The notes under the pieces were generated by a model that was not told the DNA's origin, did not search any database, and saw only the letters and a program-made list of their open reading frames with translations. From a virus: DNA of 64,000 nucleotides. Where the stretch lies: positions 1 to 64,000 of the IMG/VR virus record IMGVR_UViG_3300012798_000001; one strand, written 5' to 3'. Positions 2 to 64,000 of this stretch are shown here, piece after piece. The position numbers and the translations under genes were made by a program. Position 1 is the stretch's first letter. Each line of letters opens with the position of its first letter.

Positions 2-865
2 CCGGCCCGTGAAATCATCCATGACCGGTGGAACACGCTCTACCACCCGCTCTGCGGCACCTCGCCGATCTTCGCTTGCGGCCTGGCGGCGATGCAGGGC
101 CTCAAGATTCAGAACAACTCGGCGTCGTTCTTCGCCAACGGGTCGCAGCCGGGCGGCATTCTGACTGCGCCTGCCGCGATCAGCAACGAGACCGCAGAGC
201 GGCTGAAGGCCCATTGGGACACCAACTACTCCGGCGCCAATGTGGGCAAGGTCGCCGTCCTCGGTGACGGGCTCAAGTATGAGCCGATGGCGATCAATGC
301 GGTCGACTCGCAACTGATCGAGCAGCTCAAGTGGACGGCCGAGGTGGTGTGCGCCACGTTCGGGGTCCCGGCGTACATGGCCGGCATCGGCGCGATGCCG
401 ACCTACAACAACATCGAGGCCCTGAATCAGCAGTATTACTCGCAGTGCCTCCAGATCCACATCGAGAGCATCGAGCTTTGCCTGAACGAGGGGCTCGCCC
501 TGCCGAAGAGCTACGGCACCCGGTTCTCGATTGACGATCTGCTGCGGATGGATACGGCCACCATGGTCAAGGCCGAGGCCGAGGCGGTGGGCGCCGGCAT
601 CAAGTCGCCCAACGAGAGCCGGCTGCGGCTCAACCTGCCGCCGGTCAAGGGCGGCGCCACCCCGTACCTCCAGCAGCAGAATTACTCGCTCGCAGCCCTC
701 GACGATCGCGACCGCGGCGACCCGTTCGCCAAGCCGCAGCCGGCGCCGCAGATCGCGCCGCCGGAGGATACCGAGGAAGACGAGCCGGACGACCAGGACG
801 CGCAGGCCGATGCCGCGCGCTTCGCGGCCCGGCTGGTCCATCGGCTGCTCCAGGCCGCAGCGTGA
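2..865 (+). CDS. phage portal protein, HK97-type (5' end outside window)
   Basis: Frame is open from nt 2 with no upstream stop. The motifs '[23 protein letters not shown]...[19 protein letters not shown]' and the acidic C-tail fit my recollection of Phage_portal C-terminal halves. The stop overlaps the next start (GTGA). Confidence 0.85.
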
Positions 866-2523
866 TCCACGTCGTCCTCGGTCCACCGACCGCAGGGAAA
901 TCGACCTACGTCCGCCAGCACGCCGCCGAGGGCGACGTGATCGTGGACTATGACGCCATCGCGCAGGCGCTCGGCTTTCCCGAGGAGCACGACGCCGATG
1001 GCTCGATCCGCCTCGTCACCCGGTCGGCGCGGGCTGGCGCCATCAACCGGGTCATGGACGGGCTCGACCACGACGCTTGGATCATCGGCACCAATCCGAA
1101 GCCGGCCCGGCTTCGTGCCTACGCCCGAGCTGGCGCGGACTTCACCGTGATCGACCCCGGCCAGGAGGAGTGCCTCCGGCGGGCCAAGCAGCAGGGTCGG
1201 CCGCCGGGCGTCTTCGTGGCAATCAATGACTGGTACGCCGCTCCGCCGGTCCTACCGGGCACAGAAGAAGGGCCAAAGGCGATGCCGAGATCGAGTACCG
1301 CAGTCGCCGACATGGCCGATGCCGTCTATGACGCGGTCAAGGTCTATGTCGGGCGTGAGGTCGGTGGCGTGAAGCCCCAGCTCGTCTCGCTACAGCGCGA
1401 CCTCGACGCCGCAGTGACGATGCTGTCGGTCACGGAGGCGGAGTTGAAGGAGGCCCGCGCCGACGCTGCGACGGCCCGAGCCGAGACCGCGGAGATCCGT
1501 GTCGTCGCCAACGGCCTCGTCGAGCGGTTGGGCGAAGTCATGGAGCGGCTGTCCATCCTGGAGGCCAGGGCGCCCGTTGCCGGCCCTGCGGGGCCCGCTG
1601 GAGCCGATGGCGCCCCAGGGGCGCCCGGTCCCAAGGGCGACCCCGGCGAGGCCGGCCCAGCGGGCCCCCAGGGGCCGCCCGGCCAAGACGGCCTGGCCGG
1701 CCCCCGAGGGGAGCGCGGCGAGGCCGGTCCGCAGGGCCCGGAGGGGCCGGCGGGCCGCGACGGCCAGGACGGGGCGCCTGGGCCTGCTGGCGCGCCTGGA
1801 GAGGCGGGTCCCGCGGGTCCGCAGGGGCCGGAGGGCCCGGCTGGCCAGGACGGGGCCCCTGGGCCCGCTGGCGCGCCCGGCGAGGCCGGTCCGGCTGGTC
1901 CCCAGGGGGAACAAGGGCAGGCAGGGCCGGCGGGCCTGGACGGCGCCCCTGGCGCGCCCGGCGAGGCCGGTCCGGCTGGCGAGGCTGGCCCGGCTGGCCC
2001 CCAGGGCGAGAAGGGCCTGGACGGGGCCCCTGGCCGCGACGGGCGGGATGGCGTCCAAGGGCCGCAGGGCGAGCGTGGCTTGCCCGGTCCCCAGGGCGAG
2101 GCCGGTCCGATCGGCATGCGCGGCGAGCGCGGCGAGAAGGGCGACCCTGGCCGCGACGGTGCCAGCGTCCACAGCATCGACCTCACGACCCCGGATGGCG
2201 GCCGGACGTTCGTCTTCAGCATCGAGGGCGGCGACGAGGTGCTGGTCAACGAGATCCAGACCCGCACGACGATCTGGCAGGGCATCTACGAGGAGGGCCG
2301 GACCTACCAGCCCGGCGACATCGTCACCCTCGGCGGCTCCTGGTGGCACTGCAACCTGGAGACCACCGAACGGCCCGGTGAGGCCAAGGCGGCCTGGAGC
2401 CTCACGGTCAAGCGTGGCCGCGACGGCAAGGACGGCAAGAACGGCGAGCGCGGCGAGCGCGGGCCGCAGGGCCCGGCGGGGCGTGACCTGACGCAGATCG
2501 CTCCGGATGGGAGCAAGTTCTGA
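862..2523 (+). CDS. P-loop kinase-like domain / coiled coil / collagen-like repeat / CBM-like C-terminal fusion protein
   Basis: Single 553-aa ORF. It has a Walker A 'GPPTAGKST' in the first ~130 aa, then a heptad-like Ala/Glu/Leu segment, ~64 uninterrupted G-X-Y triplets, and a globular tail '[27 protein letters not shown]'. A second 8-triplet GXY run follows. Confidence 0.8.
1582..2160 (+). repeat. collagen-like Gly-X-Y coding repeat (~64 triplets)
   Basis: '[37 protein letters not shown]...[13 protein letters not shown]' reads without interruption. Nucleotide units such as ggcgcgcccggcgaggccggtccggctgg recur. Confidence 0.9.
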
Positions 2524-47717: not shown

Positions 47718-48061
47718 GGCATCTGCTCCCGCCGGACCATGGCTCGGGTCCGGTCCCGCTCGACGGCGTCGTCCCGGCTCTCCTCCAGCCACCAGCGATG
47801 GGCGGCGGAGATGTCGAACGGCGACCACACGATCCGGCCGGGGGCGCCGGCCTCGACCACCTCCATCACCCTCGCGGCGGCGATGACATCGAGCCCGGCC
47901 TCGCTCTCGTCATAGGCGAGGCAGGCATCGTCGTACCGGACATACATCGAGACCGAGGGCTTCTGCTCCTGCGAGCACCACCAGATCAGGACATAAAGCG
48001 GGGGCATGGCGCGCATACCGGTCTCCGGTTGCACCCTGCGAGGGCGGGTTGTCTGGGGCAT
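47714..48061 (-). CDS. hypothetical protein, first gene of early-left operon
   Basis: 115-aa ORF with AGGA 6 nt upstream. Confidence 0.5.
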   Translation of the reverse strand: MPQTTRPRRVQPETGMRAMPPLYVLIWWCSQEQKPSVSMYVRYDDACLAYDESEAGLDVIAAARVMEVVEAGAPGRIVWSPFDISAAHRWWLEESRDDAVERDRTRAMVRREQMP

Positions 48062-48368
48062 CTATCCTGGGCTCTAATGCGAGCCCGTAACGATGCCGTC
48101 ATCATGTGATCGGCCCGTTTTGCGGTCAAGCGCATTTTCTTTGGTCGTCGCTGTCAACCTGTGGATTGTTCTGGGGGTTGTAAGTGGACAAACCGTCATA
48201 CGGCGTCCTACGGAACCCTGCGGACCCTAAAAGAACCCGTTCACAAAAAGTTTAGACCCCCTGAATTCATCAAGTATCGGGTTACGTTCTGTGACCTAGA
48301 TTTAGGCCACCGGCTTTTATTTGCAGATTGTTGTTGCGGGCGATCTCAAAACGCGCATTCATCAAGGC

Positions 48369-48626
48369 ATGCTCTACTGCGATGCCGCCCTGTATCGGGT
48401 CCAGAGGTGGATCGAGGCCCTCGATCCGCATCTTCGTCAGCCGCTTGTTCTAGCGCGGTTGACTGGGCTCAGTTCTGCGACTCTGCGCCGGTTTATGGCG
48501 CCGGGCGGCATTGGGAATGTGACCCTCGATACCCTGCGGCGCCTGGAGCAGCACGTGCCGGCCGATTTCATGCCGCTGCACATCCAGACGCCGCTCCGCG
48601 ACGACAAGCCGGCGAACGCCGCCTGA
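48369..48626 (+). CDS. putative early regulator (HTH-like)
   Basis: 'LARLTGLSSATLRRFMAPGGIGNVTLDTLRRLE'. First gene of the rightward operon. The start is uncertain (TTG at 48321 is an alternative). Confidence 0.45.
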   Translation: MLYCDAALYRVQRWIEALDPHLRQPLVLARLTGLSSATLRRFMAPGGIGNVTLDTLRRLEQHVPADFMPLHIQTPLRDDKPANAA

Positions 48627-50002: not shown

Positions 50003-50773
50003 ATGGCCCGCATCCGGTCGATCCACCCAAGCCTCCTGACCGACGAAGCCTTCATGACCCTCACGGTCGAGGCCCCGCTCGCCGTGACCCTGCTGATCGG
50101 GTTGTGGACCGAGGCCGACGATCAGGGGGTGTTCGAGTGGAAGCCGCTCACGATCAAGGCCCGCATCCTGCCGGCACCGGTGCTGGACGTCGTCCCCCTG
50201 CTGGAGGTGCTGGAGCGTTACCGGTTCATCCGCCGGTACGAGATCGACGGCCGCGAGTACGGAGCGGTTCGGAACTTCGCCCGGTTTCAGCGGCCGAAAA
50301 AGCCGAACGCGATCCACCCCATGACGGAAGAGGTCCGGGCCTGGGTTGGAACCGGTTCCGAACCGGTGGGGAACCGGTCCCGAACCGGTGGGGAAAATCT
50401 CTCGCAGATGGAGGATGGAGGAGGAAGGAAGGAAGAGAAGGAGGAAGGAGGGAATCAGGAAGCAGTTGATCCCAGCCCCCCGCGCGAGCGCGCGCCCGCG
50501 CGAGGCGATGCCTCGCGGGAGTATGCCTTCGTTGGGAAGGTGATCCGGCTGACGACGCCCGACTTCGATCGCTGGGCCTCCGCCTTCAAGAACCTCGAAC
50601 TCACGGCCGAGCTGATCGCCAGGGACGCCTATCTGGCCGGCCCCGAGGTCAACGACCGCGATCGGAAGAACTGGTTCACGTCCACCAGCAAATACCTCGC
50701 CAACCGCAACGCCGAGATGCGCCAGCGGGCCAGGGCCGGTCCGGACAGGGCTTCGCGCGGTTACGCGATCTGA
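50003..50773 (+). CDS. replication initiator / replisome organiser-like protein
   Basis: 'IRSIHPSLLTDEAFMTLTVEAPLAVTLLIGLWTEADDQGVFEW' fits a conserved phage replication-protein N-terminus. The gene contains internal iterons and lies before the primase/helicase. Confidence 0.55.
   Translation: MARIRSIHPSLLTDEAFMTLTVEAPLAVTLLIGLWTEADDQGVFEWKPLTIKARILPAPVLDVVPLLEVLERYRFIRRYEIDGREYGAVRNFARFQRPKKPNAIHPMTEEVRAWVGTGSEPVGNRSRTGGENLSQMEDGGGRKEEKEEGGNQEAVDPSPPRERAPARGDASREYAFVGKVIRLTTPDFDRWASAFKNLELTAELIARDAYLAGPEVNDRDRKNWFTSTSKYLANRNAEMRQRARAGPDRASRGYAI
50348..50391. repeat. iterons: 2 x 22 bp (4 x GAACCGGT phased every 11 bp)
   Basis: ggaaccggttccgaaccggtgg / ggaaccggtcccgaaccggtgg, followed by a ~38-nt pure purine tract (~50418-50455). 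Confidence 0.75.
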
Positions 50774-51094: not shown

Positions 51095-52457
51095 GGTGAT
51101 CGTCTTCCCCTATCGCCGCCGTGGCCGGGTCGTGAACCAAAAATACCGCGGCGCCGGGAAGAAGTTCTGGATGGCTGCAGGCGGCGAGCTGGTCCTGTGG
51201 AACCTGGATTGCCTGCTGTCGAACCCGGATCACGTCTACATCGTCGAGGGCGAGATGGACGCCCTGGCCTTCATGGAGGCCGGGATCTGGAATGTGCTCT
51301 CGGTCCCCAACGGCGCGCCCCCGCCGGAGCGGGAGGACGAGGTCGTCGAGCCGGAGCACGACGAGACGTTCCGCTACCTGTGGAACTGCCGGGAGGAGCT
51401 GGCCGGCATCCGCTTCGTCCTGGCCGGCGACAGCGATGCGGCCGGGATCAAGCTGCGGCACTCGCTGGTGTCCCGCCTCGGCCGCGCCAACTGCGACATC
51501 GTCGATTGGCCCGAGGGTGTCAAGGACGGCAACGACTACCTCCTGGAGGTCGGGCCGGCCGCCTTCGCCGAGTATGTGCGGGCCAGCCGCAAGCCCTACC
51601 CCATCCGCGGCCTGTGGGGGTGGAACGAGGTCCAGCCGACCCCGCCGATGGAGAGCTTCGACATCGGCATCCCGCTGCTGCGCCAGCACGTCCGCCTCGC
51701 CCGCGGCACCGTCTCGGTGGTCACCGGCATCCCGAACCACGGCAAGAGCGCGCTGTGGAAGGCCATCGCCTGCCAGATGATCAAGAACCACGGTTGGAAC
51801 GTCACCGCGGCCAGCTTCGAGGATCAGGTCTACGCCAACCTCATGCCCGAGCTGCTCCGGATCATGAGCGGCCAGGGCCCATCGCAGGAGCCGTGGATCT
51901 GCCAGAAGCGAGCCGACGCGGCCCGCCTCCTGGCCAAGCACTTCTCCTTCATCGCCGACGAGGGCTATGTCGAGGAGCCCATGACCTTGGAGTGGTTCGT
52001 GGGCATGGCGCGGGACGCGAAGGTCCGCTTCGGCACCGACTTTCTGGTCGCCGACCCGTGGAATGAGATCGAGCACCTCTGGGGCCGCGATCAGAACGAG
52101 ACGCAGTACATCGGCACCGGGTTGCGCGATCTGAGGCGCCTGTCGGTCGAACTCGACATGCACATCATGATCATCGCCCACCCCCACAAGGTGCTCGATG
52201 GGCAGGCGCCTGGGCTCTACCACATCAACGGGTCGGCCCATTGGGCGAACAAGGTCGATATCGGCCTCGTCGTGCATCAGCCCAACTTCGCCGAGGGCCC
52301 AGGCGGCCCGACCGAGGTCTATGTCCGCAAGATCAAGCGCCCGGTGCTCGGCCAGCGCGGGATCGTGACGGTCCAGTTCAACGCGGCCACCGGCTCCTTC
52401 GAAGCCCCGTCCGGCCGACCCTTCGACGACCCCGACATCGAGAGGACCGCAGCATGA
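50904..52457 (+). CDS. bifunctional Toprim primase / DnaB-like helicase (T7 gp4/Twinkle-like)
   Basis: Toprim motif 'VYIVEGEMDALAF...VLAGDSDAAG', Walker A 'VVTGIPNHGKSAL' and Walker B 'FLVADPW'. The sensible sequence begins only around 'AISRAVEKWFISRGI' (~51000). Confidence 0.8.
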   Translation: MPDASQSGSNQTEPHGGATTADGATASGYTAISRAVEKWFISRGIHHGALRAGGVFSEARGGSEVIVFPYRRRGRVVNQKYRGAGKKFWMAAGGELVLWNLDCLLSNPDHVYIVEGEMDALAFMEAGIWNVLSVPNGAPPPEREDEVVEPEHDETFRYLWNCREELAGIRFVLAGDSDAAGIKLRHSLVSRLGRANCDIVDWPEGVKDGNDYLLEVGPAAFAEYVRASRKPYPIRGLWGWNEVQPTPPMESFDIGIPLLRQHVRLARGTVSVVTGIPNHGKSALWKAIACQMIKNHGWNVTAASFEDQVYANLMPELLRIMSGQGPSQEPWICQKRADAARLLAKHFSFIADEGYVEEPMTLEWFVGMARDAKVRFGTDFLVADPWNEIEHLWGRDQNETQYIGTGLRDLRRLSVELDMHIMIIAHPHKVLDGQAPGLYHINGSAHWANKVDIGLVVHQPNFAEGPGGPTEVYVRKIKRPVLGQRGIVTVQFNAATGSFEAPSGRPFDDPDIERTAA

Positions 52458-52753
52458 GCGATGCCATGAACGAGGGCTTGCCCGTGGCCGGCTACCGCCC
52501 ACAGACCGACGCAGCCGTCGATCTGGTCAACGAGCACAAGTTGATGGAGGAGCGAGTGCTCCGCCGGCTCGACGATCTGCGCGCGATGGCATATCGCGGC
52601 GCGCACGGCGCGGCGCACGGGGTCACGATCGACCAGCGGTGGCTGGCCATAGCCCAGACGCACATCGAGCAGGGCTTCATGGCCCTCAACCGCTCCATCT
52701 TTCAGCCTGGCCGGGTCGCCCTGCCCGGCGACAACGTGAGGCCGCCGGAATGA
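52454..52753 (+). CDS. Acb2/Tad1-like small protein (candidate cyclic-nucleotide sponge), copy 1
   Basis: ATGA coupling. 'GYRPQTDAAVDLVNEHK...DQRWLAIAQTHIEQGFMALNRSI'. Y14 and K29 are 15 residues apart, the spacing I recall for the Acb2 ligand-binding residues. Confidence 0.5.
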   Translation: MSDAMNEGLPVAGYRPQTDAAVDLVNEHKLMEERVLRRLDDLRAMAYRGAHGAAHGVTIDQRWLAIAQTHIEQGFMALNRSIFQPGRVALPGDNVRPPE

Positions 52754-57323: not shown

Positions 57324-57588
57324 CCCCGAGATGATCTATCTTGAGCCCGGCCCGGGCCCGTTCGATGACCGGACGTGGTGCGCCAACGACGTCTGGCCCG
57401 AGGACCACGCCGAGGGCGGCCCCAGCGGCGTCCGCTACATCCGCGCCGATCTGCATGAGTTGGCGCTGAAGGTTGCTCGCGATGAGGGTGCCGGCGCCTG
57501 TGCCCGATGGCTCCAGGGGCAGAAAGGCAAGACGGTCGATGAGGCGCTACCGATCACAATGCTGCGGACGGTGCTCAAAGGATCATGA
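57316..57588 (+). CDS. hypothetical protein
   Basis: Internal ATG overlapping the upstream end. 90 aa. Confidence 0.5.
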   Translation: MADPEMIYLEPGPGPFDDRTWCANDVWPEDHAEGGPSGVRYIRADLHELALKVARDEGAGACARWLQGQKGKTVDEALPITMLRTVLKGS

Positions 57589-58124
57589 GCGGCAAGAGCA
57601 AGGCCAGGGCGCAGCCGCTGCTGGAGACCCCGGAACGGGCCCAGCACGCCGCGGCGATCATCGACCGCAACATCGGCACAGCCATCGGCGCGCCGCGAGG
57701 CCGGCTCATCCAGACCCCGCTCGACCGGCTGTTCGTGCGCAACTCGATCACGCAGCGCCAGTTCTCGGCCGGGGCCAAGCTCAAGGAGGACTTCGAGGTC
57801 GGGATGCTCGGCGCCAAGGACGCCGAGGGCAACTTCGCCCTGGGGATCAGGGGCCAAGCGAACCACGCATGGGTCCCCGATGTGCAACTCGACGCGATCC
57901 GCCGGTTCAAGCAGGCGATGATCGCGGTCGGGGCCCATGTCGGCGCCGTCCTGGTGGCGTTCTGCTGCTACGACCGCGACGTGGTCAAGATCGCCGTCCA
58001 GCAGGGCCGCAACCGGGACAAGGTGATGGGGATCGTCGAGGTCGGGCTCGACACCCTGGCCGATCACTATGGCCTGCTCGGCAACGACAAGCACCGCGCG
58101 ATGCGGGGGTTCAGGGAGGATTGA
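57585..58124 (+). CDS. hypothetical protein (position of a late-gene regulator)
   Basis: ATGA coupling. 179 aa. Penultimate gene of the rightward operon, before the terminator. Confidence 0.5.
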   Translation: MSGKSKARAQPLLETPERAQHAAAIIDRNIGTAIGAPRGRLIQTPLDRLFVRNSITQRQFSAGAKLKEDFEVGMLGAKDAEGNFALGIRGQANHAWVPDVQLDAIRRFKQAMIAVGAHVGAVLVAFCCYDRDVVKIAVQQGRNRDKVMGIVEVGLDTLADHYGLLGNDKHRAMRGFRED

Positions 58125-58128
58125 GCCG

Positions 58129-58434
58129 ATGACCAGGGAGGCGTTCGACAAGATCGCCGAGGGGCTGACCGAGGCCCTGGAGCGAACGATCCGTGGCGAC
58201 GGTGACACGACCGCGATCCCGCCGCCGGGCTTCTATATCGGCGAGGAGATTGCGGCGCGCTTCATGACCCTCCATGACGTGGCCCTCGTCCTGGACATGA
58301 GCGAGTGCGCCGTCGACGGGCTGCTACGCGGAGAGGTTCGGATCAAGCCGCGCCTCGCCGATGGGCTAGGCGCGATGTTCGACGTGTCGCCCGATCTGTT
58401 CCTCAACCTGCAGCGGGCCTACGACGATCAGTAG
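58129..58434 (+). CDS. HigA-like XRE HTH protein (no adjacent HigB seen)
   Basis: 'FMTLHDVALVLDMSECAVDGLLRGEVRIKPRLADGLGAMFDVSPDLFLNLQRAYD'. AGGGAGGA SD. Confidence 0.6.
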   Translation: MTREAFDKIAEGLTEALERTIRGDGDTTAIPPPGFYIGEEIAARFMTLHDVALVLDMSECAVDGLLRGEVRIKPRLADGLGAMFDVSPDLFLNLQRAYDDQ

Positions 58435-58558
58435 AGCCGACTCTCCCCGATGAATCAGTATCTTGTGCCATGCCGCATCGTGTGGCAGCATCTCCCGCAT
58501 CGTGACTTCGTGTCACCGCGCTCCGCAGGCGCTGCCCGGCTCACGCTGGGGATGGGGA

Positions 58559-58591
58559 AACGCCCGGCCTTGAGCCGGGCGTTCCTGTTTT
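58559..58591 (+). terminator. rho-independent terminator of early-right operon
   Basis: aacgcccggc-cttga-gccgggcgtt followed by cctgtttt. Confidence 0.7.
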
Positions 58592-59061
58592 CAGGGCTTG
58601 CCGACGAGCAGCTCGAACTGATCCGGCCCGATCCGCATCCGGACCACGTCGCCAGGGCTTAGGTCGATCCAGTTCTGGCAGTCGTGGCCGTCGATCTTCT
58701 CGACCCCGTCGTCGCCGCCGAAGGAGTCGTTCTTTGCGTTCCACACGGCATCGGGGTCCATGGTCTCGGGATTGGCCTCGTTGGCATAGGCGACCCGCTG
58801 CATGCGCTCGCTGGCCATCAGAGCGGGGCGCCCGTTGCTCACGAGGTAGACCCCGTCATCCCCCACCAGATGAAGGCCGGGCTTGACCTTGGTGGGATCC
58901 ACATCCTCGGGGGTCGCGGCGCCCGCCTCGAAGTCGGGCTCCTTGCCATCCTTGCGGCACTCGGGATCGCACATCTCGTCGAACGTCGGAGCGTGCTCTG
59001 GCGCTGCCATGGCGTGATCGAGCAGCTCTTTCACCGCGGCTTTGGGGAATGTGAGGATCAT
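58591..59061 (-). CDS. conserved hypothetical protein (DUF3085-like by recollection)
   Basis: Start 'MILTFPKAAVKELLDHAMAAPEHAPTF' follows CCCGGAGAG. Confidence 0.55.
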   Translation of the reverse strand: MILTFPKAAVKELLDHAMAAPEHAPTFDEMCDPECRKDGKEPDFEAGAATPEDVDPTKVKPGLHLVGDDGVYLVSNGRPALMASERMQRVAYANEANPETMDPDAVWNAKNDSFGGDDGVEKIDGHDCQNWIDLSPGDVVRMRIGPDQFELLVGKP

Positions 59062-59893
59062 CGGTTCTCTCCGGGTTCGATTCACTAGGGGTTCGTCGAT
59101 CTACTAGGGGGGTGCTGCCGCCGCCGGCCAGCCTGGAGGGCCTCGGGCCCGGCCCGGCCGGCCGCTCGTCGATCGACCGGGGGTGGGCGTCGACCGACCG
59201 GGGGGTGTGGTCGTCGATCGACCGGGGGGTCGTCGACCGACCGGGGGGTGTCCGGGGGGTCGGGGGTGTGTCCCGGCCGCCACAGTCTCCGATCGGAGAC
59301 AGGGGGTGTCTCCCGGCCGCCACACTGCGGCCAGGCCGAGACAGGTGTGGCCGGCCGGACACGTGTCCGCCGGGTGACACACTCGCCAGGGTTGGGCAAC
59401 CCCGCCCCTACCACAAGCCGGGCTTGGTGATCCCGATCCGAGCCACCAGCCGGGCCAGCCCAACCGGGCCGCCGGGTTCCACATCGACTTCGTGGCGATC
59501 TCAACCGCCCCACAAGGGCCCGCGCCAGGGGGCCGGCGGCCCGGCCGGCGCTGGCCCCAGGCGGGCCCCGGCCAAGGCGGCCCCGCCCCGGCCCTAGCTG
59601 GGGATCGCGGGCCCGCCATGGGGCCAGGGCCGCCACAGGGCCACCAGGGCCACCACAGGGGCCGCCGGGGCGGGCCATGGCCACCAGGGCCGGGGCTTGG
59701 CCCCGCCCGGCTTGCACAGGCGGCCCTACGGGGCCCGCGCGGGCCATGGCTGGTGGTAGGGTACGCGAAAGGCGGGCCGGCCCTGTAGAGCCACGACAAC
59801 GCGGCACAGGGGCTCGGCCCCACCAGGGCCACCAGCCCAGGGCCACCAGGGCCCGGCCAGGGGCGGCCCTTGGGCCCGCCTGGACGAGCCACG

Positions 59894-59920
59894 GCCCCGC
59901 GCGGCGCTAGCCGGCGGGGC
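59894..59920. repeat. conserved two-tier hairpin H1
   Basis: GCCCCGC-G-CGGC-GCTA-GCCG-GCGGGGC. Confidence 0.6.
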
Positions 59921-60010
59921 TGGGCTGGGGCTGGTGGTGGCATGGGGCTGGGCCCCGCCATGGCGCGCTCCTGGCAAGGGGCCGGCGCTGGCCGGCCCTG
60001 GCACCAGCAA

Positions 60011-60039
60011 AGCCCCGCGCGGCGCTAGCCGGCGGGGCT
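60011..60039. repeat. conserved two-tier hairpin H2
   Basis: AGCCCCGC-G-CGGC-GCTA-GCCG-GCGGGGCT, 22 nt downstream of the 60062 stop. Confidence 0.6.
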
Positions 60040-60061
60040 TGGTGTGGCTGATGGGGCTCGC

Positions 60062-60361
60062 CTACGGCTGGAGCCCGGCCATGGCGTTGAGGCTGTCCGC
60101 TACCGCCTTGGCTTGCCGCTTGGTGGCCCAGCCCCGGCGGGCCGGGCCGTTGTGGTAGCGGTAGCGCCGCGCCTTCACATCGGGCCGCGCGCAAAGGCGG
60201 ATTAGGGAATCCCCATATTCCGGGTTGCGGCCGAAAACATACCAGCCGGGGCCCGTTGTGGAATCCTGGCGCGCGTAGAAGCGGTTATACACTCGGCCGT
60301 AGGAGTCGGTAGGGTTAAACAACACTCCGGACTCGGCGAATTCTTGCGGGTTGCTGGCCAT
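60062..60361 (-). CDS. hypothetical protein ('GPGWY' family, copy 2)
   Basis: Internal start 'MASNPQEFAESGVLFNPTDSYGRVYNRFYARQDSTTGPGWYVFG'. Confidence 0.5.
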   Translation of the reverse strand: MASNPQEFAESGVLFNPTDSYGRVYNRFYARQDSTTGPGWYVFGRNPEYGDSLIRLCARPDVKARRYRYHNGPARRGWATKRQAKAVADSLNAMAGLQP

Positions 60362-60362
60362 T

Positions 60363-60629
60363 TCACGACTCCGAGTCGGTGGCATCGCTGAAAGCAGCGG
60401 CGCTGGTGTTGAAGGGGCCGCTGGGCTCGCCATCCGGGAGGCAGCCAGGGAACTCGGCCTGCCAATACCAGCCGGGCCCGGTGAAATCGAAGAACTCGGG
60501 CTCAAGGGCCGCCAGTTCGACTTCGCCCATGAAAAACACGTAAAACGAGCCCCAGTCTTCCCCCTGGGCGTTGGTGAAAGAGTGGTAACCCGCCTTGCTG
60601 GTGGCGTTGGTGTCGGCGCTGGTGGCCAT
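60363..60629 (-). CDS. hypothetical acidic protein ('GPGWY' family, copy 1)
   Basis: 'FYVFFMGEVELAALEPEFFDFTGPGWYWQAEF'. Confidence 0.5.
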   Translation of the reverse strand: MATSADTNATSKAGYHSFTNAQGEDWGSFYVFFMGEVELAALEPEFFDFTGPGWYWQAEFPGCLPDGEPSGPFNTSAAAFSDATDSES

Positions 60630-60679
60630 GGTGGGACTCCGGGTTGTGGGGCCACATTGCGGGCCCTTGCACTGCCCTA

Positions 60680-60708
60680 AGCCCCGCCGGCTTTCGCCGC
60701 GCGGGGCT
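60680..60708. repeat. conserved two-tier hairpin H3
   Basis: AGCCCCGC-CGGC-TTTC-GCCG-C-GCGGGGCT (a GAAA tetraloop on the transcribed strand). Confidence 0.6.
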
Positions 60709-60725
60709 GGGCTTGGCCCGCCGGG

Positions 60726-61484
60726 TTAGGCGGGGATGCGGTACACGGTTTTGCCGTCCACTTTTTCGGTTTCCACCGTAAGGCCCAACTTCACCTTAAT
60801 GGCCCCCGCAATGGCGCCGCGGGCCGTGTGGCGTTGCCAGCCAAAGGCATCCATGGCGTCGTCCAGAGTGCAACCCTCGGGCCGCCGCAACATGGCCACG
60901 AAACGGGAAAGCTTGGTGTCCCGCGGCGCCTTGGGCTCGGCCGGGGCCTTGGGCTTGCGGCCCGGCTTGCCCTTGGCAACCTTGGCCGGCTTGGCCGGCT
61001 TGGCAGCCTTGCCCTTGGCCGGCTTGCCCTTGCCGCGGGCCGCCTTGGCCGGCTTGTCCTGGGCCATGGGCCCCGTGGCCGGGCCCACCGAAACCACACG
61101 GGCCACAATGCCCTCCTCCTGGCCGGTTTCCGTGGCCCCGCCCACCACCACATGGCGGGCCGGATCTTCCACCAGGGCCACCACAGGGGCCCCGGACTCG
61201 GTGGCCGGGCCGCGGGCCGGCTCGCCAGCCGAGTTCGTACCCTCGGCGAAAGCGTAGGGCACCGGCTCGGTGGCCGGGCCGCCGGCCGACTCCTGGTCGG
61301 TGGGGCCGCCGGCAAATTCCCAACCCGGCGGGTTGGCGCTGGTGGACTCGGTGGCGTTGCTGGCCGGGGCCAGGGCGGGGAAAGTGAAGCCCCCATCGGT
61401 GGCGTACACGGTGGCCGGGTCAACACCCGCGGCCTTGGCTGCGCGGTTGGCGTTGCCCTTGGTGGTGTAAACCTTGGCAGTCAT
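60726..61484 (-). CDS. DUF3489-domain protein with Lys/Ala/Pro-rich linker
   Basis: The C-terminal 'KLSRFVAMLRRPEGCTLDDAMDAFGWQRHTARGAIAGAIKVKLGL...YRI' matches the DUF3489 pattern. Confidence 0.6.
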   Translation of the reverse strand: MTAKVYTTKGNANRAAKAAGVDPATVYATDGGFTFPALAPASNATESTSANPPGWEFAGGPTDQESAGGPATEPVPYAFAEGTNSAGEPARGPATESGAPVVALVEDPARHVVVGGATETGQEEGIVARVVSVGPATGPMAQDKPAKAARGKGKPAKGKAAKPAKPAKVAKGKPGRKPKAPAEPKAPRDTKLSRFVAMLRRPEGCTLDDAMDAFGWQRHTARGAIAGAIKVKLGLTVETEKVDGKTVYRIPA

Positions 61485-61536
61485 TTTCTTTCTCCGGGTT
61501 GCGGGCCGCCTGGATCGGGGCCCTTGCACTGCCTTG

Positions 61537-61563
61537 GCCCCGCGCGGCGCTGGCCGGCGGGGC
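61537..61563. repeat. conserved two-tier hairpin H4
   Basis: GCCCCGC-G-CGGC-GCTG-GCCG-GCGGGGC. Confidence 0.6.
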
Positions 61564-61582
61564 TGGGCTGGTGGCGGCCCGC

Positions 61583-61783
61583 CTAGTCCTCCTCTATTTC
61601 CGAGCCATCGGCGCGGGCCCACAGGCGGTAGTCGAAGCCGTGGCCCTGGCAAGCAAACTCGAAAACAAGATCCCCATTGCGGAGTCGGCTCCCGTATTTT
61701 CCAGTTGGGCTGTACCACCGATCGTTGTGTAGCAAGGTCCCAACGACCTTGGTGTACACGGCGATTTCAACGAAGTCGGCCAT
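61583..61783 (-). CDS. hypothetical protein
   Basis: 'MADFVEIAVYTKVVGTLLHNDRWYSPTGKYG'. TAATG coupling. Confidence 0.5.
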   Translation of the reverse strand: MADFVEIAVYTKVVGTLLHNDRWYSPTGKYGSRLRNGDLVFEFACQGHGFDYRLWARADGSEIEED

Positions 61784-61965
61784 TACTTGGACTCCTCGCG
61801 CTGGGCTTTGCACTCCAAGGTCACGTAACCGCCACCGGGCAGGGTAATGCGCTGGCCAAGGCTAGGAAGGCAGTCTTCCAGGGTAAGGTTGTGGTCCACC
61901 ACTTGGACCTCCTCCTGGCCCCCACCAACGGCAGTCACCAGCAATAGGGCATACAGGGTATTCAT
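61783..61965 (-). CDS. small secreted/anchored protein
   Basis: 'MNTLYALLLVTAVGGG' is a signal-like N-terminus. CCCGGAGAG SD. Confidence 0.5.
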   Translation of the reverse strand: MNTLYALLLVTAVGGGQEEVQVVDHNLTLEDCLPSLGQRITLPGGGYVTLECKAQREESK

Positions 61966-62133
61966 GGGGCTCTCCGGGTTGCGGGCCTTGGGCCCTAGTG
62001 GCGTTTCCGCCGTTTCGTTTTGGCCCCCCTTTATGGCTCGTTTCTGGGCCCTGTGGGAAGTCAAAAGCGGCGGAAAAGCGAGCAATTCCATTGCGTTGTG
62101 ATCCCCCCTACCGATAACAACCGAGTCACACAT

Positions 62134-62490
62134 ATGAGCCCTGGCCAGCCCCGCCATAGCCGGCCGGCCAAGGTTGCCTGGGGCCGCCTGTACAAGACTG
62201 CGCAATGGCGGGCCCTACGGCGGGCCCAACTACAGCGCGAGCCCCTTTGCGCCATGTGTACGGCCCTGGGGGTATTGCGGGCCGCAACGGTGGTGGACCA
62301 CATACAGCCCCACCGTGGCCGGGCCGCCCTTTTCTACAGCCCCACCAACCTGCAAAGCCTTTGCAAGGCCCACCATGACTCCACCAAGCAACGGTGGGAA
62401 AGGCTGGCCCTAGCTGAAACCGGGGCCGATGGCTGGCCCGCCGAGCCCAGCCCCGCCACCATGGCCCGGCCGGCCAGCCCAAGGCGGTAG
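62134..62490 (+). CDS. HNH endonuclease (packaging-associated type)
   Basis: 'CAMCTALG...VDHIQPHRG...NLQSLCKAHH'. Confidence 0.8.
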   Translation: MSPGQPRHSRPAKVAWGRLYKTAQWRALRRAQLQREPLCAMCTALGVLRAATVVDHIQPHRGRAALFYSPTNLQSLCKAHHDSTKQRWERLALAETGADGWPAEPSPATMARPASPRR

Positions 62491-63530
62491 CGCCGGGCCC
62501 GGCCGGCCAGGGCCCCAACGCACCAGGGCAGTCCGGCTGGACGGTTTGCCAGCTCGGCCACCATGGGCCCGCCCGCCATGGCCCCGGCCATGGGCCCGGC
62601 CTGGCGCAGTCCGTCCAGACGGTTTCCGCCCCAGCCCCGCCCGGCCCCGGCCAGGGCCCCACCACCAGAGCCAAGCGCCGGGGCATGGCCCCACCAGGGC
62701 CGCCCCACCAGGGCCAGGGGCCCAGCCCCGCCGGCCAGGGCCACCACCAGGGGGCAGGGCCCAGCTCCACCAGGGCCACCACCAGGGCCGCCGGCCCCAC
62801 CCTTTCGACCTGGTAGCGATCGGGCCCATCTACCAGCCGCCGACGATGAACCCCGCCCGCCGCTACTACCGCCCCGGCCTGGCGATCCGAGTGCCGAGCC
62901 ACAAGGCGGGCCGATGAACCCGCCCGGCGATCCAACTCCGGGCCGAGGGCGATCCGACCCGATCCACCAGCCGGCGACGATGAATCCCCCCCTAGGGAAT
63001 CGTACACGCCACCAACGATGAAAGAATCGATCTACCTCTACTCGTGGTGGATCGCATCGATCTACCGGGGCCGGCATGGAAGATCGAGGTGGGGTCCCCA
63101 CTCTGGGGAAGATCGGGGCGGCTTCGATTCGAAGGTCTGAATCGGGAACATCGGCTCGATTATTGCTCCAAACCGATCGAGATCTGATCGAGAATTGCTC
63201 GGGGAGCAACAGAATTGCTCGGCAGGGGGGGGTATGAGCAATCTTCGGGTCGATCCGGCCGGGGGCGGCGCGGGCAACTCTTTCTTAGACGCCGCAGTAA
63301 AATGAGGGGCCCTCAGATCTGAGCCCTCGCGAACCGGCGAAAGAAAATGCTCCGGGGGTCGCCCGAACGCGCGAGTCGTTGAAATTGCAGGGAAATTCCC
63401 TCCCTTCCCCTGCGCGAAGGCAAGACAAAAACACCTGCATCACGTCGGAAATCGGCGGGATCGCCGCTCCGACGTCTTGGCCACGCCAAGACAACCCCGA
63501 AAGAACGCCAGAACAACCGGTGCGAGACCT
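62491..63530. other. repeat-dense non-coding region, candidate cos/pac + promoter region
   Basis: Direct repeat CAGTCCG..C..GACGGTTT at 62529 and 62607. GGCCACCAGGGCC-type units at 62640-62800. Four CGATGAA copies at 62844, 62912, 62978 and 63016. AGAATTGCTCGG twice with inverted GAGCAA at 63191-63241. Palindromes CTCAGATCTGAG (63312) and GGGAAATTCCC (63390). Confidence 0.45.
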
Positions 63531-64000
63531 ATGCCCAAACCGAAGTTGAGCGCTCCGCGGCCAAGCACTGACCGCCCCGTGACTGGCCCGGAACTGCTGT
63601 CTCATGGGGGCAGCATCGCCATCCCCCCGGAGTGGCCAGCGCACCAGACCGAGGCCCGGCGGCTTGAGCAGCTCGTGCCCTACGCCCGCAACGCTCGGAC
63701 GCACACGGACGAGCAGGTTGGGCAGATCATGGCGTCGATGCGGGAGTGGGGCTTTACGATCCCGGTCCTGGTGGACGAGAGCGACAGCATCATCTGCGGT
63801 CATGGCCGCGTCCTGGCAGCCCAGCGGCTCGGCTACGAGCACGTCCCGGTCATGGTGGCCCGCGGCTGGAGCGATGCGAAGAAGCGGGCATACATCCTCG
63901 CCGACAACAAACTCGCGCTCAATGCCGGGTGGAATGACGAGCTGCTGCGGCTGGAGATCTCCGATCTCGCCGACATGGGCTTCGACATCCCGCTCCTCGG
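63531..64000 (+). CDS. ParB-like nuclease-domain protein, probably the N-terminus of a ParB-DNA methyltransferase (3' end outside window)
   Basis: 'LVPYARNARTHTDEQVGQIMASMREWGFTIPVLVDESDSIICGHGRVLAAQRLG'. Open to the window edge. Confidence 0.75.
   Translation, partial: MPKPKLSAPRPSTDRPVTGPELLSHGGSIAIPPEWPAHQTEARRLEQLVPYARNARTHTDEQVGQIMASMREWGFTIPVLVDESDSIICGHGRVLAAQRLGYEHVPVMVARGWSDAKKRAYILADNKLALNAGWNDELLRLEISDLADMGFDIPLL

Follow-up and report, generated by a model that had tools for sequence, protein, structure and literature searches.

The operators OR and OL of phage lambda are the more general analogue of an operator array that is bound cooperatively, and the start-associated sequences and stoperators of mycobacteriophages (Clusters K and A) offer a further point of comparison. 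The closest known case to the locus described here is that of the operator arrays of mycobacteriophage D29, whose Gp36 protein binds GC-rich direct repeats, spaced by ~20-26 bp and located at two loci close to the ends of the genome, and represses the genes downstream (PMC12266134). A second protein of interest is GafA, the gene transfer agent activator of the Rhodobacterales, which contains the DUF6456 domain and binds promoter DNA (PMC9638019), and the DUF3085 family has otherwise been described only as a plasmid gene, uncharacterised and associated with host range (PMC12826799). Here we analysed a stretch of 64,000 nucleotides of viral DNA (positions 1 to 64,000 of the IMG/VR record IMGVR_UViG_3300012798_000001; this whole stretch is called the window), which comprises most of the genome of a temperate, lambdoid-style phage recovered from metagenomes. 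Our subject is block 1, a GC-extreme region of ~1 kb (around 59,062-60,061) lying between the end of a leftward operon of small genes and a DUF3085 gene. With rather more doubt than confidence, we propose that block 1, which lies in the right arm of this temperate, HK97-like cos phage, may combine a transcriptional boundary with an operator array to which a DNA-binding protein of the phage would bind.

Identical copies of this phage are present in the ENA, JGI and Logan assemblies, the longest contig with the DUF3085 protein of the window having ~72.8 kb, and among isolated phages no close relative was found by megablast or by tblastn with DUF3085. Six contigs with an identical DUF3085 protein are at least 99.9% identical to the window and gave no evolutionary information. 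The diverged lineages compared were L007/L102 (DUF3085 80% identical), L118 (54-55%), L010 and L153 (59%); L102 and L118 were obtained from a scan of IMG/VR with an iteron-pair pattern, which was far too unspecific and whose matches, among those listed, were mostly coding.

Iterons in front of the DUF3085 gene

What appears to be the clearest functional signal of block 1 is a group of five to six 19-bp iterons in the same orientation, of the form TCGTCGATCNAC-YR-GGGGG, that reach the ribosome-binding site of the DUF3085 gene. The elements of this region, with iterons scored by a position-weight matrix (PWM) built from 19 iteron units, are the following.

59,166-59,250, plus strand: distal iteron array, four 19-bp units at 59,166, 59,187, 59,211 and 59,230 (PWM 22-30 bits)
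59,113-59,165, no strand: GC-rich gap of 53 bp between the distal and the proximal iterons, candidate promoter position
59,074-59,112, plus strand: proximal iterons by PWM, a strong one at 59,093-59,111 (32.9 bits) and a degenerate one at 59,074-59,092 (10.4 bits)
59,062-59,077, minus strand: ribosome-binding box AACCCGGAG at 59,069-59,077, before the DUF3085 ATG (59,059-59,061)
58,591-59,061, minus strand: DUF3085 gene, 156 amino acids, behind the iteron array (Pfam PF11284, E = 2.4e-17)

Each iteron carries a 10-bp pseudo-palindrome, GTNGATCNAC, together with a run of five to six G, and the units are spaced 19-24 bp apart, which is about two helical turns. The distal unit consists of TCGTCGAYCGAC plus CGGGGG(G) and has the 10-bp (pseudo)palindromic core GTCGAYCGAC. 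An earlier reading of the window, made from the sequence alone (hereafter the sequence-only reading), had noticed four copies of a G-run repeat; these are the 3' ends of the 19-bp iterons, and the repeat, GTCGAYCGACCGGGGG, is indeed present in four exact copies (59,168, 59,189, 59,213 and 59,232, with spacings of 21, 24 and 19 bp), where ~0.5 would be expected by chance. PWM matches of 22-33 bits were found only in block 1, always on the plus strand and in every lineage, with none elsewhere in the 64 kb. By this measure the window has five strong iterons and a degenerate one, L102 has five and L118 four, and arrays of the distal type comprise three units in each of L102, L118 and L010. The proximal core GATCGACGA is invariant in five lineages, L153 included, and ends 6-25 nt before the ribosome-binding site. 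All lineages retain a gap of ~50-55 bp, in which a CTCGGGCC box is partly conserved.

The modular architecture and the iterons are conserved, and the iterons are unique to block 1. What is looked for in an operator array, namely repeated (pseudo)palindromic sites with helical-turn spacing, conserved (here in five lineages) and confined to one locus, is found in this array, which co-occurs with DUF3085 and DUF6456 genes in all five lineages and with a gene for a helix-turn-helix (HTH) protein of the HigA/Xre type in four of the five. Because the iterons are unique, conserved, placed at the ribosome-binding site and travelling with DUF3085, we read them as a putative operator. Among the roles offered by the sequence-only reading, that of a protein-binding array is accordingly the one that fares best, the iterons being conserved in sequence, orientation and position in five lineages and occurring only here, while the binding itself is putative.

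The box AACCCGGAG precedes four minus-strand genes of the right arm (at 59,069, 60,637, 61,492 and 61,972), the DUF3085 gene being the first of them. The AlphaFold model of the DUF3085 protein has a predicted local distance difference test (pLDDT) value of 92.6, and a fold search returned only weak, non-significant matches to single sliding-clamp domains (best E = 0.03, template-modelling score ~0.4). More distant DUF3085 loci have no spacer; in L155 (4,787-5,926), for example, the DUF3085 homologue comes directly after a sliding-clamp-like gene.

Candidate binders of the iterons are an HTH protein of the HigA/Xre type (58,129-58,434; HigA family match with E = 2.8e-7, under the curated cut-off), a GafA-like DUF6456 protein (57,585-58,124) and the DUF3489 protein of the operon (60,726-61,484), which is winged-helix-like with a Lys/Ala/Pro-rich tract and whose homologues sometimes co-match MarR_2 and appear in some sources under the name MarR/ArsR. 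Scans of the neighbouring small proteins with NCBIfam and PADLOC matched only the HigA-like HTH, and in the literature we found no defined GafA site motif against which to match the GATCYAC core. Because DUF6456 (the GafA domain) and DUF3489 (of which one homologue is named from a Rhodospirillaceae genome) both point there, the host would be alphaproteobacterial.

Anatomy of the spacer and the end of the leftward operon

The GC content of block 1 is 0.76-0.80 over 59,100-60,150, 14 points above a background of ~0.66, and the three-base codon periodicity of GC is lost between 59,080 and 60,000. A spacer of ~930-1,000 bp stands at the same position and with the same module order in L007/L102 and L118, and its flanking proteins are only 54-80% identical in the three lineages; the gene upstream of it is not conserved between lineages. 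Several independent short-read assemblies of this phage (the ends of L006, L003, L004 and L005) break at or near the GC-extreme blocks, at window positions 59,351, 60,302, 61,326 and 63,297, which suggests poor coverage or repeat-induced fragmentation there. Beyond the iterons, the spacer is made up as follows.

59,262-59,369, no strand: GAGAC/GTCTC motif zone with a direct-repeat pair, a 16-bp palindrome and a 14-bp palindrome
59,426-59,502, no strand: conserved GATC-containing boxes, sense reading GAGATCGCCACGAAGTCGAYGTKGAACCCGG and CTCGGATCGGGATC (from alignments)
59,503-59,869, no strand: GGGCC-rich hypervariable core, indel-rich and poorly alignable between lineages
59,870-59,888, no strand: 19-nt island TTGGGCCCGCCTGGACGAG, invariant in three lineages, 5' arm of the predicted stem-loop H3 of the sense transcript (alignment and consensus fold)
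59,893-59,931, minus strand: copy 2 of the intercistronic cassette, with stem-loop H2 (59,895-59,921) and no T-tract (cassette score 68)
59,994-60,064, minus strand: copy 1 of the intercistronic cassette, including stem-loop T1 (60,013-60,039) and then TTT (cassette score 61)

The operon-proximal end of block 1 contains stem-loops that are of the terminator type. T1 starts ~20 nt after the stop codon (60,062) of a 99-amino-acid gene, has a folding energy of -26.6 kcal/mol and is invariant, its CTTTG included, in three lineages. The hairpins of T1 and H2 are identical 27-mers, with two more copies at 60,680 and 61,538, and a stem-loop cassette with the layout CCAGCCC-AGCCCCGCCGGC-loop-GCCGCGCGGGGC, then GGCAGTGCAAGGGCC, then the ribosome-binding box AACCCGGAG is found downstream of nearly every gene of the leftward operon (the threshold for a match to this operon intergenic cassette, at three standard deviations, being a score of 38). 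H2 belongs to a tandem duplication of ~118 bp (repeat family D1: 59,852-59,924 and 59,970-60,042) and persists in L102 and L118 although its sequence differs there, both partners having changed in two of its base pairs. The same stem-loop occurs in 21 unrelated high-GC phage contigs, flanked there by an A/T run as in intrinsic terminators, and the copies of block 1 are oriented for minus-strand transcription, matching the terminators of those 21 contigs. T1 has what characterises an intrinsic terminator, that is, a stable GC-rich stem-loop shortly after a stop codon and oriented with transcription; the run of U after the stem is found, as UUU, only at T1 and is absent at H2 and at the intercistronic copies, and a simple terminator scan listed neither T1/H2 nor the intercistronic stem-loops. 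We propose that T1 and H2 would terminate transcription here. The two conserved hairpins of the sequence-only reading are present and identical, as copies of a generic terminator-type stem-loop and not as a special element. Exact-match scans of IMG/VR with the adjacent island TTGGGCCCGCCTGGACGAG gave matches only in the two relatives. A tiling of the whole core by degenerate intercistronic cassettes was also considered and partly rejected, only two copies being significant and both of them operon-proximal.

On the iteron side of the core, the 23-bp direct repeat reported to bracket a perfect palindrome is present at 59,262-59,324: its copies (59,262-59,284 and 59,302-59,324) are 96% identical, and the perfect 16-bp palindrome GTCTCCGATCGGAGAC lies between them at 59,285-59,300. 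The second reported palindrome, GGACACGTGTCC, is likewise in its place and extends to a 14-bp palindrome at 59,356-59,369. Block 1 holds three perfect palindromes of at least 14 bp, where 0.34 would be expected from dinucleotide shuffles (P = 0.003). L118 and L010 retain the direct-repeat pair CTGTGGCGGCCGGGAGACACC, and none of the perfect palindromes of block 1 is kept as such in the related lineages, the exact palindromes being lineage-specific; because none is conserved in the relatives, they are unlikely to be functional units. The GATC-containing boxes are conserved in the window, L118 and L010 and partly in L102, and alignments read directly show no bias of the substitutions in this region toward synonymous changes. 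Over the whole window GATC has a mean density of 10.3 per kb, roughly three times the expectation from base composition by our own arithmetic, and it is near-absent at 60,001-61,000 (0 copies) and scarce up to 63,000.

That the remainder is built of GGGCC, GGCCC and CCACCAGGGCC units, as had been described, is borne out by motif counts well above those of shuffles. The bin 59,001-60,000 has 44 GGGCC/GGCCC and 50 GGCC (window means 8.7 and 16.7 per kb), and CCACCAGGGCC with at most one mismatch occurs 29 times against 3.4 expected. Exact copies of CCACCAGGGCC number four in block 1, all in the core (59,641, 59,681, 59,820 and 59,843), and four in a second block described below (block 2), all of them on the plus strand. 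Inside the core there are small conserved islands, such as GGCGGGCCATGGC and TGGTAGGGTA..GCGAAAGG. Helical phasing or bent DNA in the GGGCC units was rejected, as the top periods differ in every lineage and block, and the spacing of GGCC shows no consistent periodicity across lineages. Every sequence feature listed by the sequence-only reading is thus present where it had been placed.

Taking these elements together, the reading that we prefer would work as follows. Two tandem terminator-type cassettes (T1 with a short U-tract, then H2) and a third stem-loop would end or attenuate the leftward operon of small genes, and these stop-signal stem-loops may also protect the 3' end of the operon. 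The ~370-bp GGGCC-rich, hairpin-prone filler core would evolve fast by slippage-like indels, with no sequence-specific role identifiable in it. Beyond it, a control region formed by the GAGAC/GTCTC repeats and by the iterons, in two groups around a gap of ~53 bp, would end at the DUF3085 ribosome-binding site. A phage-encoded dimeric protein would occupy the iterons cooperatively and so set the expression of DUF3085, by promoter occlusion or as a roadblock, and the promoter would presumably lie inside the spacer. The binding of the iterons by a protein, and the choice of that protein among the candidates, are equally putative, and all of the function proposed here we infer from anatomy, conservation and neighbourhood.

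Several points weigh against this reading. A scan of 58,300-63,600 with the sigma-70 consensus, which may not fit the host, found no promoter. The tie of the candidate proteins to the iterons is one of proximity and co-occurrence and nothing stronger. T1 has only three T's and H2 has none, and both strands fold equally well (z about -5 each), making RNA-level and DNA-level roles of the hairpins inseparable. Related lineages number three to five, and the evidence from conservation and covariation is thin. Finally, the function of the ~370-bp core, with its 80% GC and the similar core beside cos, is not accounted for.

If the reading is true, block 1 would be a compact example of right-arm partitioning in a high-GC temperate phage, in which one terminator cassette is reused after each small gene and doubled at the operon end and a dedicated operator stands before DUF3085, and the 19-bp iteron would be a concrete DNA probe for finding the DUF3085 regulator. 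The retention of ~370 bp of fast-evolving DNA with 80% GC here and beside cos could point to something new, a claim that the present evidence does not allow.

Block 2, the cohesive ends and alternative readings

A related block had been reported at 62.5-62.8 kb, bracketing with block 1 the operon plus the HNH gene. The bracketing is correct, and the relation is real and on the same strand, with a local alignment score of 70 against 29 +/- 3 for shuffles. Since the alignment of block 1 with the genuine collagen-repeat gene of the phage is nearly as good (score 65), the similarity reflects shared short units and is no proof of homology. This gene (862-2,523, plus strand), just after the portal gene, encodes a protein of 553 amino acids (Pfam Collagen, E = 3e-36) with ~200 residues of Gly-X-Y and an N-terminus weakly similar to P-loop kinases (AAA_33); its DNA has 0.83-0.87 GC and accounts for the only other GGGCC-rich bin of the window. 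The possibility that the blocks are a collagen relic was rejected, as they have no Gly-X-Y frame and no 9-nt peak (the real collagen gene peaks at 9.0). The second block and the cohesive ends are placed as follows.

62,491-63,265, no strand: block 2, non-coding, ending at the right cohesive end
63,266-63,275, no strand: inferred cohesive-end overhang CGGCGCGGGC, ~10 nt (right end 63,265, left end 63,276)
Window 63,252-63,306; L007:1-40; L102:11,985-12,004; L232:1-30; L233:1-30: cohesive-end loci

Block 2 begins with a GGGCC-rich core (62,491-62,810), followed by about five GATCYACC-N9-CGACGATGAA units (62,838-63,090), which lie 200-430 bp left of the cos cut and are more regular in L102 and L118 (L118:10,290-10,480). 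The rest of the block contains one weak iteron-like site (63,054), ATTGCTC repeats and a G8 run. Like block 1 it is non-coding, with 11-14 phase shifts and indels in multiples of three making up only 1/11, 1/13 and 2/17. The four copies of ATTGCTC/GAGCAAT just left of cos (63,162-63,242) and the 13-bp palindrome AGGGAAATTCCCT ~115 bp right of it (63,389-63,402; conserved in L118, L232 and L233) are candidate accessory packaging or regulatory sites.

The position of the ends comes from relatives. In the assembly of one relative, ...CGGCCGGGGG is followed without a break by the Illumina adapter AGATCGGAAGAGC; the 73.8-kb IMG/VR contig of this relative has its last base at that very junction, and its first base is homologous to the first base of an independent contig, 13 nt before CGCCGCAGTAAAATGAG. 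By homology, the termini of the window phage would be at 63,265 and 63,276, and ~10 nt (CGGCGCGGGC) are missing between the blunt-ended termini. The large terminase, TerL, is of the HK97/HK022 type (~42% identical to such terminases). HK97 has 10-nt 3' overhangs (PMC11331095), and the length seen here would fit it; the overhang of the window phage would presumably have the same polarity. In HK97 the small terminase (TerS) has its binding site past the cut, at +15 to +29 (PMC11331095), and in the window phage an invariant A-tract motif, CGCCGCAGTAAAATGAG, sits at +14 to +30 beyond the cut; because the HK97 site lies there, the repeats of block 2 are probably not the terminase site. A packaging signal in block 1, which had also been suggested, is not supported: the cohesive ends lie beside block 2, no physical terminus was found in block 1 when it was examined for an HK97-type cos, and the cos sequence occurs once in the window, beside block 2.

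The alternative to our reading that survives best, unlikely though we hold it to be, is that no function of the GC-extreme core, or perhaps even of the entire spacer, depends on its sequence and that it is tolerated, fast-evolving filler, made of expanded short repeats or gene remains and GC-rich through slippage or biased repair, so that the only parts to matter would be the terminators on its flank and the iterons. The core is hypervariable and indel-rich between lineages and lacks consistent periodicity, its similarity to block 2 is no greater than that to the unrelated collagen-repeat gene, and the neighbouring gene is itself replaceable. Neutral non-coding DNA in bacteria and phages is, however, normally GC-poorer than coding DNA, and the spacer departs from this expectation in the opposite direction, by 14 points; moreover, a spacer of ~1 kb has been kept in three lineages in spite of the divergence of its flanking proteins, and the core is dotted with conserved islands.

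A Rho-dependent termination or polarity zone, in which an untranslated C-rich leftward transcript would load Rho and uncouple DUF3085 unless antiterminated, is distinctly unlikely. About 1 kb is untranslated, and a stem-loop comes after every operon gene, an arrangement found in phage operons under antitermination control. In the sense RNA the C excess amounts to +0.09 to +0.21 over the first ~200 nt and over the iterons, and to +0.10 to +0.22 over ~550 nt of block 2. Nevertheless, G still makes up 25-35% of this RNA, which is not G-poor, an extreme degree of structure is predicted for it (-633 kcal/mol, z = -5.2), which disfavours Rho loading, and no antiterminator was identified. For the Rho zone suggested in the sequence-only reading, the C excess of 0.1-0.2 is offset by the G content and the structure of the RNA, leaving a weak possibility.

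Direct repeats of this kind also recall replication elements, and block 1 might serve as an additional origin or act on replication in cis, in the manner of the P4 ori/crr pair. Its five to six 19-bp direct repeats have dyad cores and stand 19-24 bp apart in one orientation, as in iteron origins, where repeats of 17-22 bp phased by about two helical turns are expected, and a weaker related site lies 3.9 kb away in block 2. The phage, however, encodes an O-like replication initiator (50,003-50,773) whose gene already contains a canonical lambda-type origin, with four GAACCGGT repeats at 11-bp spacing followed by a purine-only, GGA/GAA-rich tract of ~70 bp (50,346-50,460); repeats plus a purine tract inside the initiator gene are the layout of lambda. 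The replication origin and cos lie outside block 1. Neither an adjacent AT-rich element nor a location at the initiator gene as its sole element of this type is found: GC in block 1 is at least about 0.65-0.70 in any 300-bp window, its only lower-GC patch, as read directly from the sequence, is the ribosome-binding region, and block 1 lies 7-9 kb from the replication genes. The iterons, besides, abut the ribosome-binding site, a position like that of an operator. We judge a replication role to be improbable.

Apart from the O-like initiator, the gene set of the phage includes an integrase, an Erf-like recombinase, a Gam-like protein, a primase-helicase, a C5 methylase, a ParB_N-N6/N4 methylase, an HNH endonuclease and three tRNAs. 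The lowest GC seen in the window (0.46-0.55, at 48,060-48,480) separates the integrase/recombination genes, which run leftward, from the rightward replication genes and marks a likely early or immunity control region, and directly after the primase-helicase gene a 99-amino-acid product (52,454-52,753, plus strand) has a precomputed Pfam match to Acb2_Tad1_hairpin, an anti-CBASS/anti-Thoeris sponge family.

We give little credence to a DNA-level signal for packaging, recombination or end protection that pairs block 1 with block 2, for example through Chi-like CCACCAG/CTGGTGG arrays modulating RecBCD/AddAB on cos-cut ends. In its developed form, which we rate as low, the GC-extreme blocks would be a paired right-end device whose orientation-fixed CCACCAG/CTGGTGG arrays engage a nuclease (RecBCD/AddAB) or a translocase on cos-cut or replicating DNA, with the iterons as a separate operator; if true, it would be a phage-borne non-coding end-management element without described counterpart. 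Block 2 does end at the cohesive end, the phage encodes the Gam-like end-protection protein, and CCACCAG(C), the complement of the Chi core GCTGGTGG, stands on the plus strand in both blocks of all lineages (CCACCAG: 6/4/5 and 7/4/8 copies, against 2/0/1 and 0/0/0 on the opposite strand). Units of a tandem array, however, share their orientation by construction, the comparison uses the Chi sequence of E. coli, which may not be that of the host, and under the E. coli rule a nuclease that entered at the adjacent end would meet the units in the wrong orientation. The octamer GCTGGTGG (E. coli Chi) is over-represented across the whole window, with 15 copies on the plus strand and 8 on the minus strand against ~1.65 expected per strand, and part of this excess is probably driven by codon usage. 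The distance of block 1 from the end is 3.2-4.2 kb, the cos sequence has a single copy, and the HK97 TerS site is on the other side of the cut (PMC11331095), where the invariant A-tract motif of the window phage is found.

That block 1 encodes a long structured non-coding RNA, or a structured 5' untranslated region of DUF3085 with a function of its own, is highly improbable. The sense RNA folds far better than shuffles (z = -5.2), several stem-loops are conserved, H2 with compensatory changes, and the conserved islands are not under coding constraint. Yet the folding of the antisense strand is just as good (z = -4.9), as DNA palindromes would lead one to expect, no Rfam 15 family was matched (the best, Twister-sister, scored 21 bits with E = 0.55 against a gathering score of 34), and the middle of block 1 is hypervariable, with three sequences giving little covariation power.

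A G-quadruplex (G4) or i-motif regulatory element, to which the G5-6 runs upstream of DUF3085 would give rise on the template strand, has slimmer prospects still. We asked of such an element a G4Hunter score of at least 1.5 and conservation of the motif. As had been supposed, the region stands out in this respect, with the top G4Hunter score of the 64-kb window (2.56, at 59,238-59,272), and a cluster of four runs, G6-N13-G6-N5-G6-N2-G5, lies at 59,224-59,267, with a similar one in L010. The iteron zone, however, has no canonical G3+N1-7 (or N1-12) match, the best cluster needing a 13-nt loop and most loops between runs having 13-18 nt, and a compact four-run cluster is absent from L102 and L118, two of the four lineages. 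What is conserved is the whole 19-bp unit and not the G-run alone.

The sequence-only reading would have given way if block 1 belonged to a common host intergenic repeat family or contained a real open reading frame (ORF). Of the former nothing was seen in a low-power scan of a genome collection with the short 15-mer CCACCAGGGCCACCA, which, among the matches listed, returned only single scattered copies in unrelated phyla and no block-like locus. As for the latter, no ORF is conserved between lineages and no frame is protein-like, in spite of the 285-amino-acid ORF (59,104-59,961, minus strand) reported by gene callers: block 1 is a real non-coding spacer. Its longest stop-free stretches have 295-328 codons against simulated means of 220-267 (P = 0.06-0.29), so that an ORF of this length is expected by chance at such GC content. 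The reading phase shifts 10-16 times per ~1 kb between lineages, and indels in multiples of three occur at the chance rate (6/21, 5/16 and 3/12 in the lineage comparisons). No Gly-X-Y periodicity appears in any frame of any lineage (best Gly phase at most 0.32). That the 285-amino-acid ORF is a gene, as automatic annotation has it, is scarcely credible: it is predicted on five independent contigs and opens with a conserved ribosome-binding-site-like CAGGAG-N6-ATG, but the directly translated alignments diverge into different frames within ~25 codons, the indels do not keep the frame, there is no Pfam or PHROG match, no gene is called in the spacer of L007, and the composition is the Pro/Gly/Ala/Arg/Trp mix of translated random GC-rich DNA.

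Automatic calls place 'proteins' of 285 amino acids and of 291 amino acids (62,334-63,209, minus strand) on the two blocks, and those on L001, L002 and L005 omit the real HNH endonuclease gene (62,134-62,490, plus strand), which the 291-amino-acid ORF overlaps. Block 1 is in this sense an annotation trap, spurious proteins of 285 and 291 amino acids being already in public protein collections.

Comparison with known systems

Intrinsic terminators of high-GC proteobacterial phages offer a comparison for the stop-signal end of block 1. Its stem-loop, AGCCCCGCCGGC-loop-GCCGCGCGGGGC, has the identical form in the terminators of the 21 unrelated contigs, and like an intrinsic terminator it stands ~20 nt past a stop codon and is stable, with a folding energy of -24 to -30 kcal/mol. 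What sets it apart is that the T-tract has only TTT at T1 and is missing from H2 and from the intercistronic copies, and that it recurs after nearly every gene of a single operon, the stem-loop unit being tandem-doubled at the end of that operon.

With iteron-type origins (lambda ori, or the oriR of plasmids P1 or pSC101) the array shares four to six repeats of ~19 bp in the same orientation, with inner dyad symmetry and a spacing of ~20-24 bp. It differs from them in having no AT-rich region and no adjacent initiator gene, and in running into a ribosome-binding site. The start-associated sequences of mycobacteriophages resemble the present phage in having a short box that includes the ribosome-binding site at several genes (AACCCGGAG, at four right-arm genes), and stoperators resemble it in being repeated asymmetric sites of fixed orientation, whereas the iterons of the window are found at one locus and not genome-wide, and both the sequences and the host group are unrelated.

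The comparison with D29 goes furthest. The repeat itself is unrelated, TCGTCGATCNAC-YR-G5 in the window and AGGCGGC-N13 in D29, and the units of the window have a dyad-symmetric core, whereas those of D29 are simple direct repeats. The array of the window consists of five to six units in two groups with a binder that is only a candidate, and neither D29 nor lambda has a counterpart of the 1-kb spacer of 80% GC around it. What the two mycobacteriophage and metagenomic loci have in common is the arrangement: several short GC-rich repeats about two helical turns apart upstream of the genes that are, or would be, regulated, near a genome end of a cos phage and with a weaker related site at a second locus, and, in the window phage, candidate small DNA-binding proteins encoded nearby.

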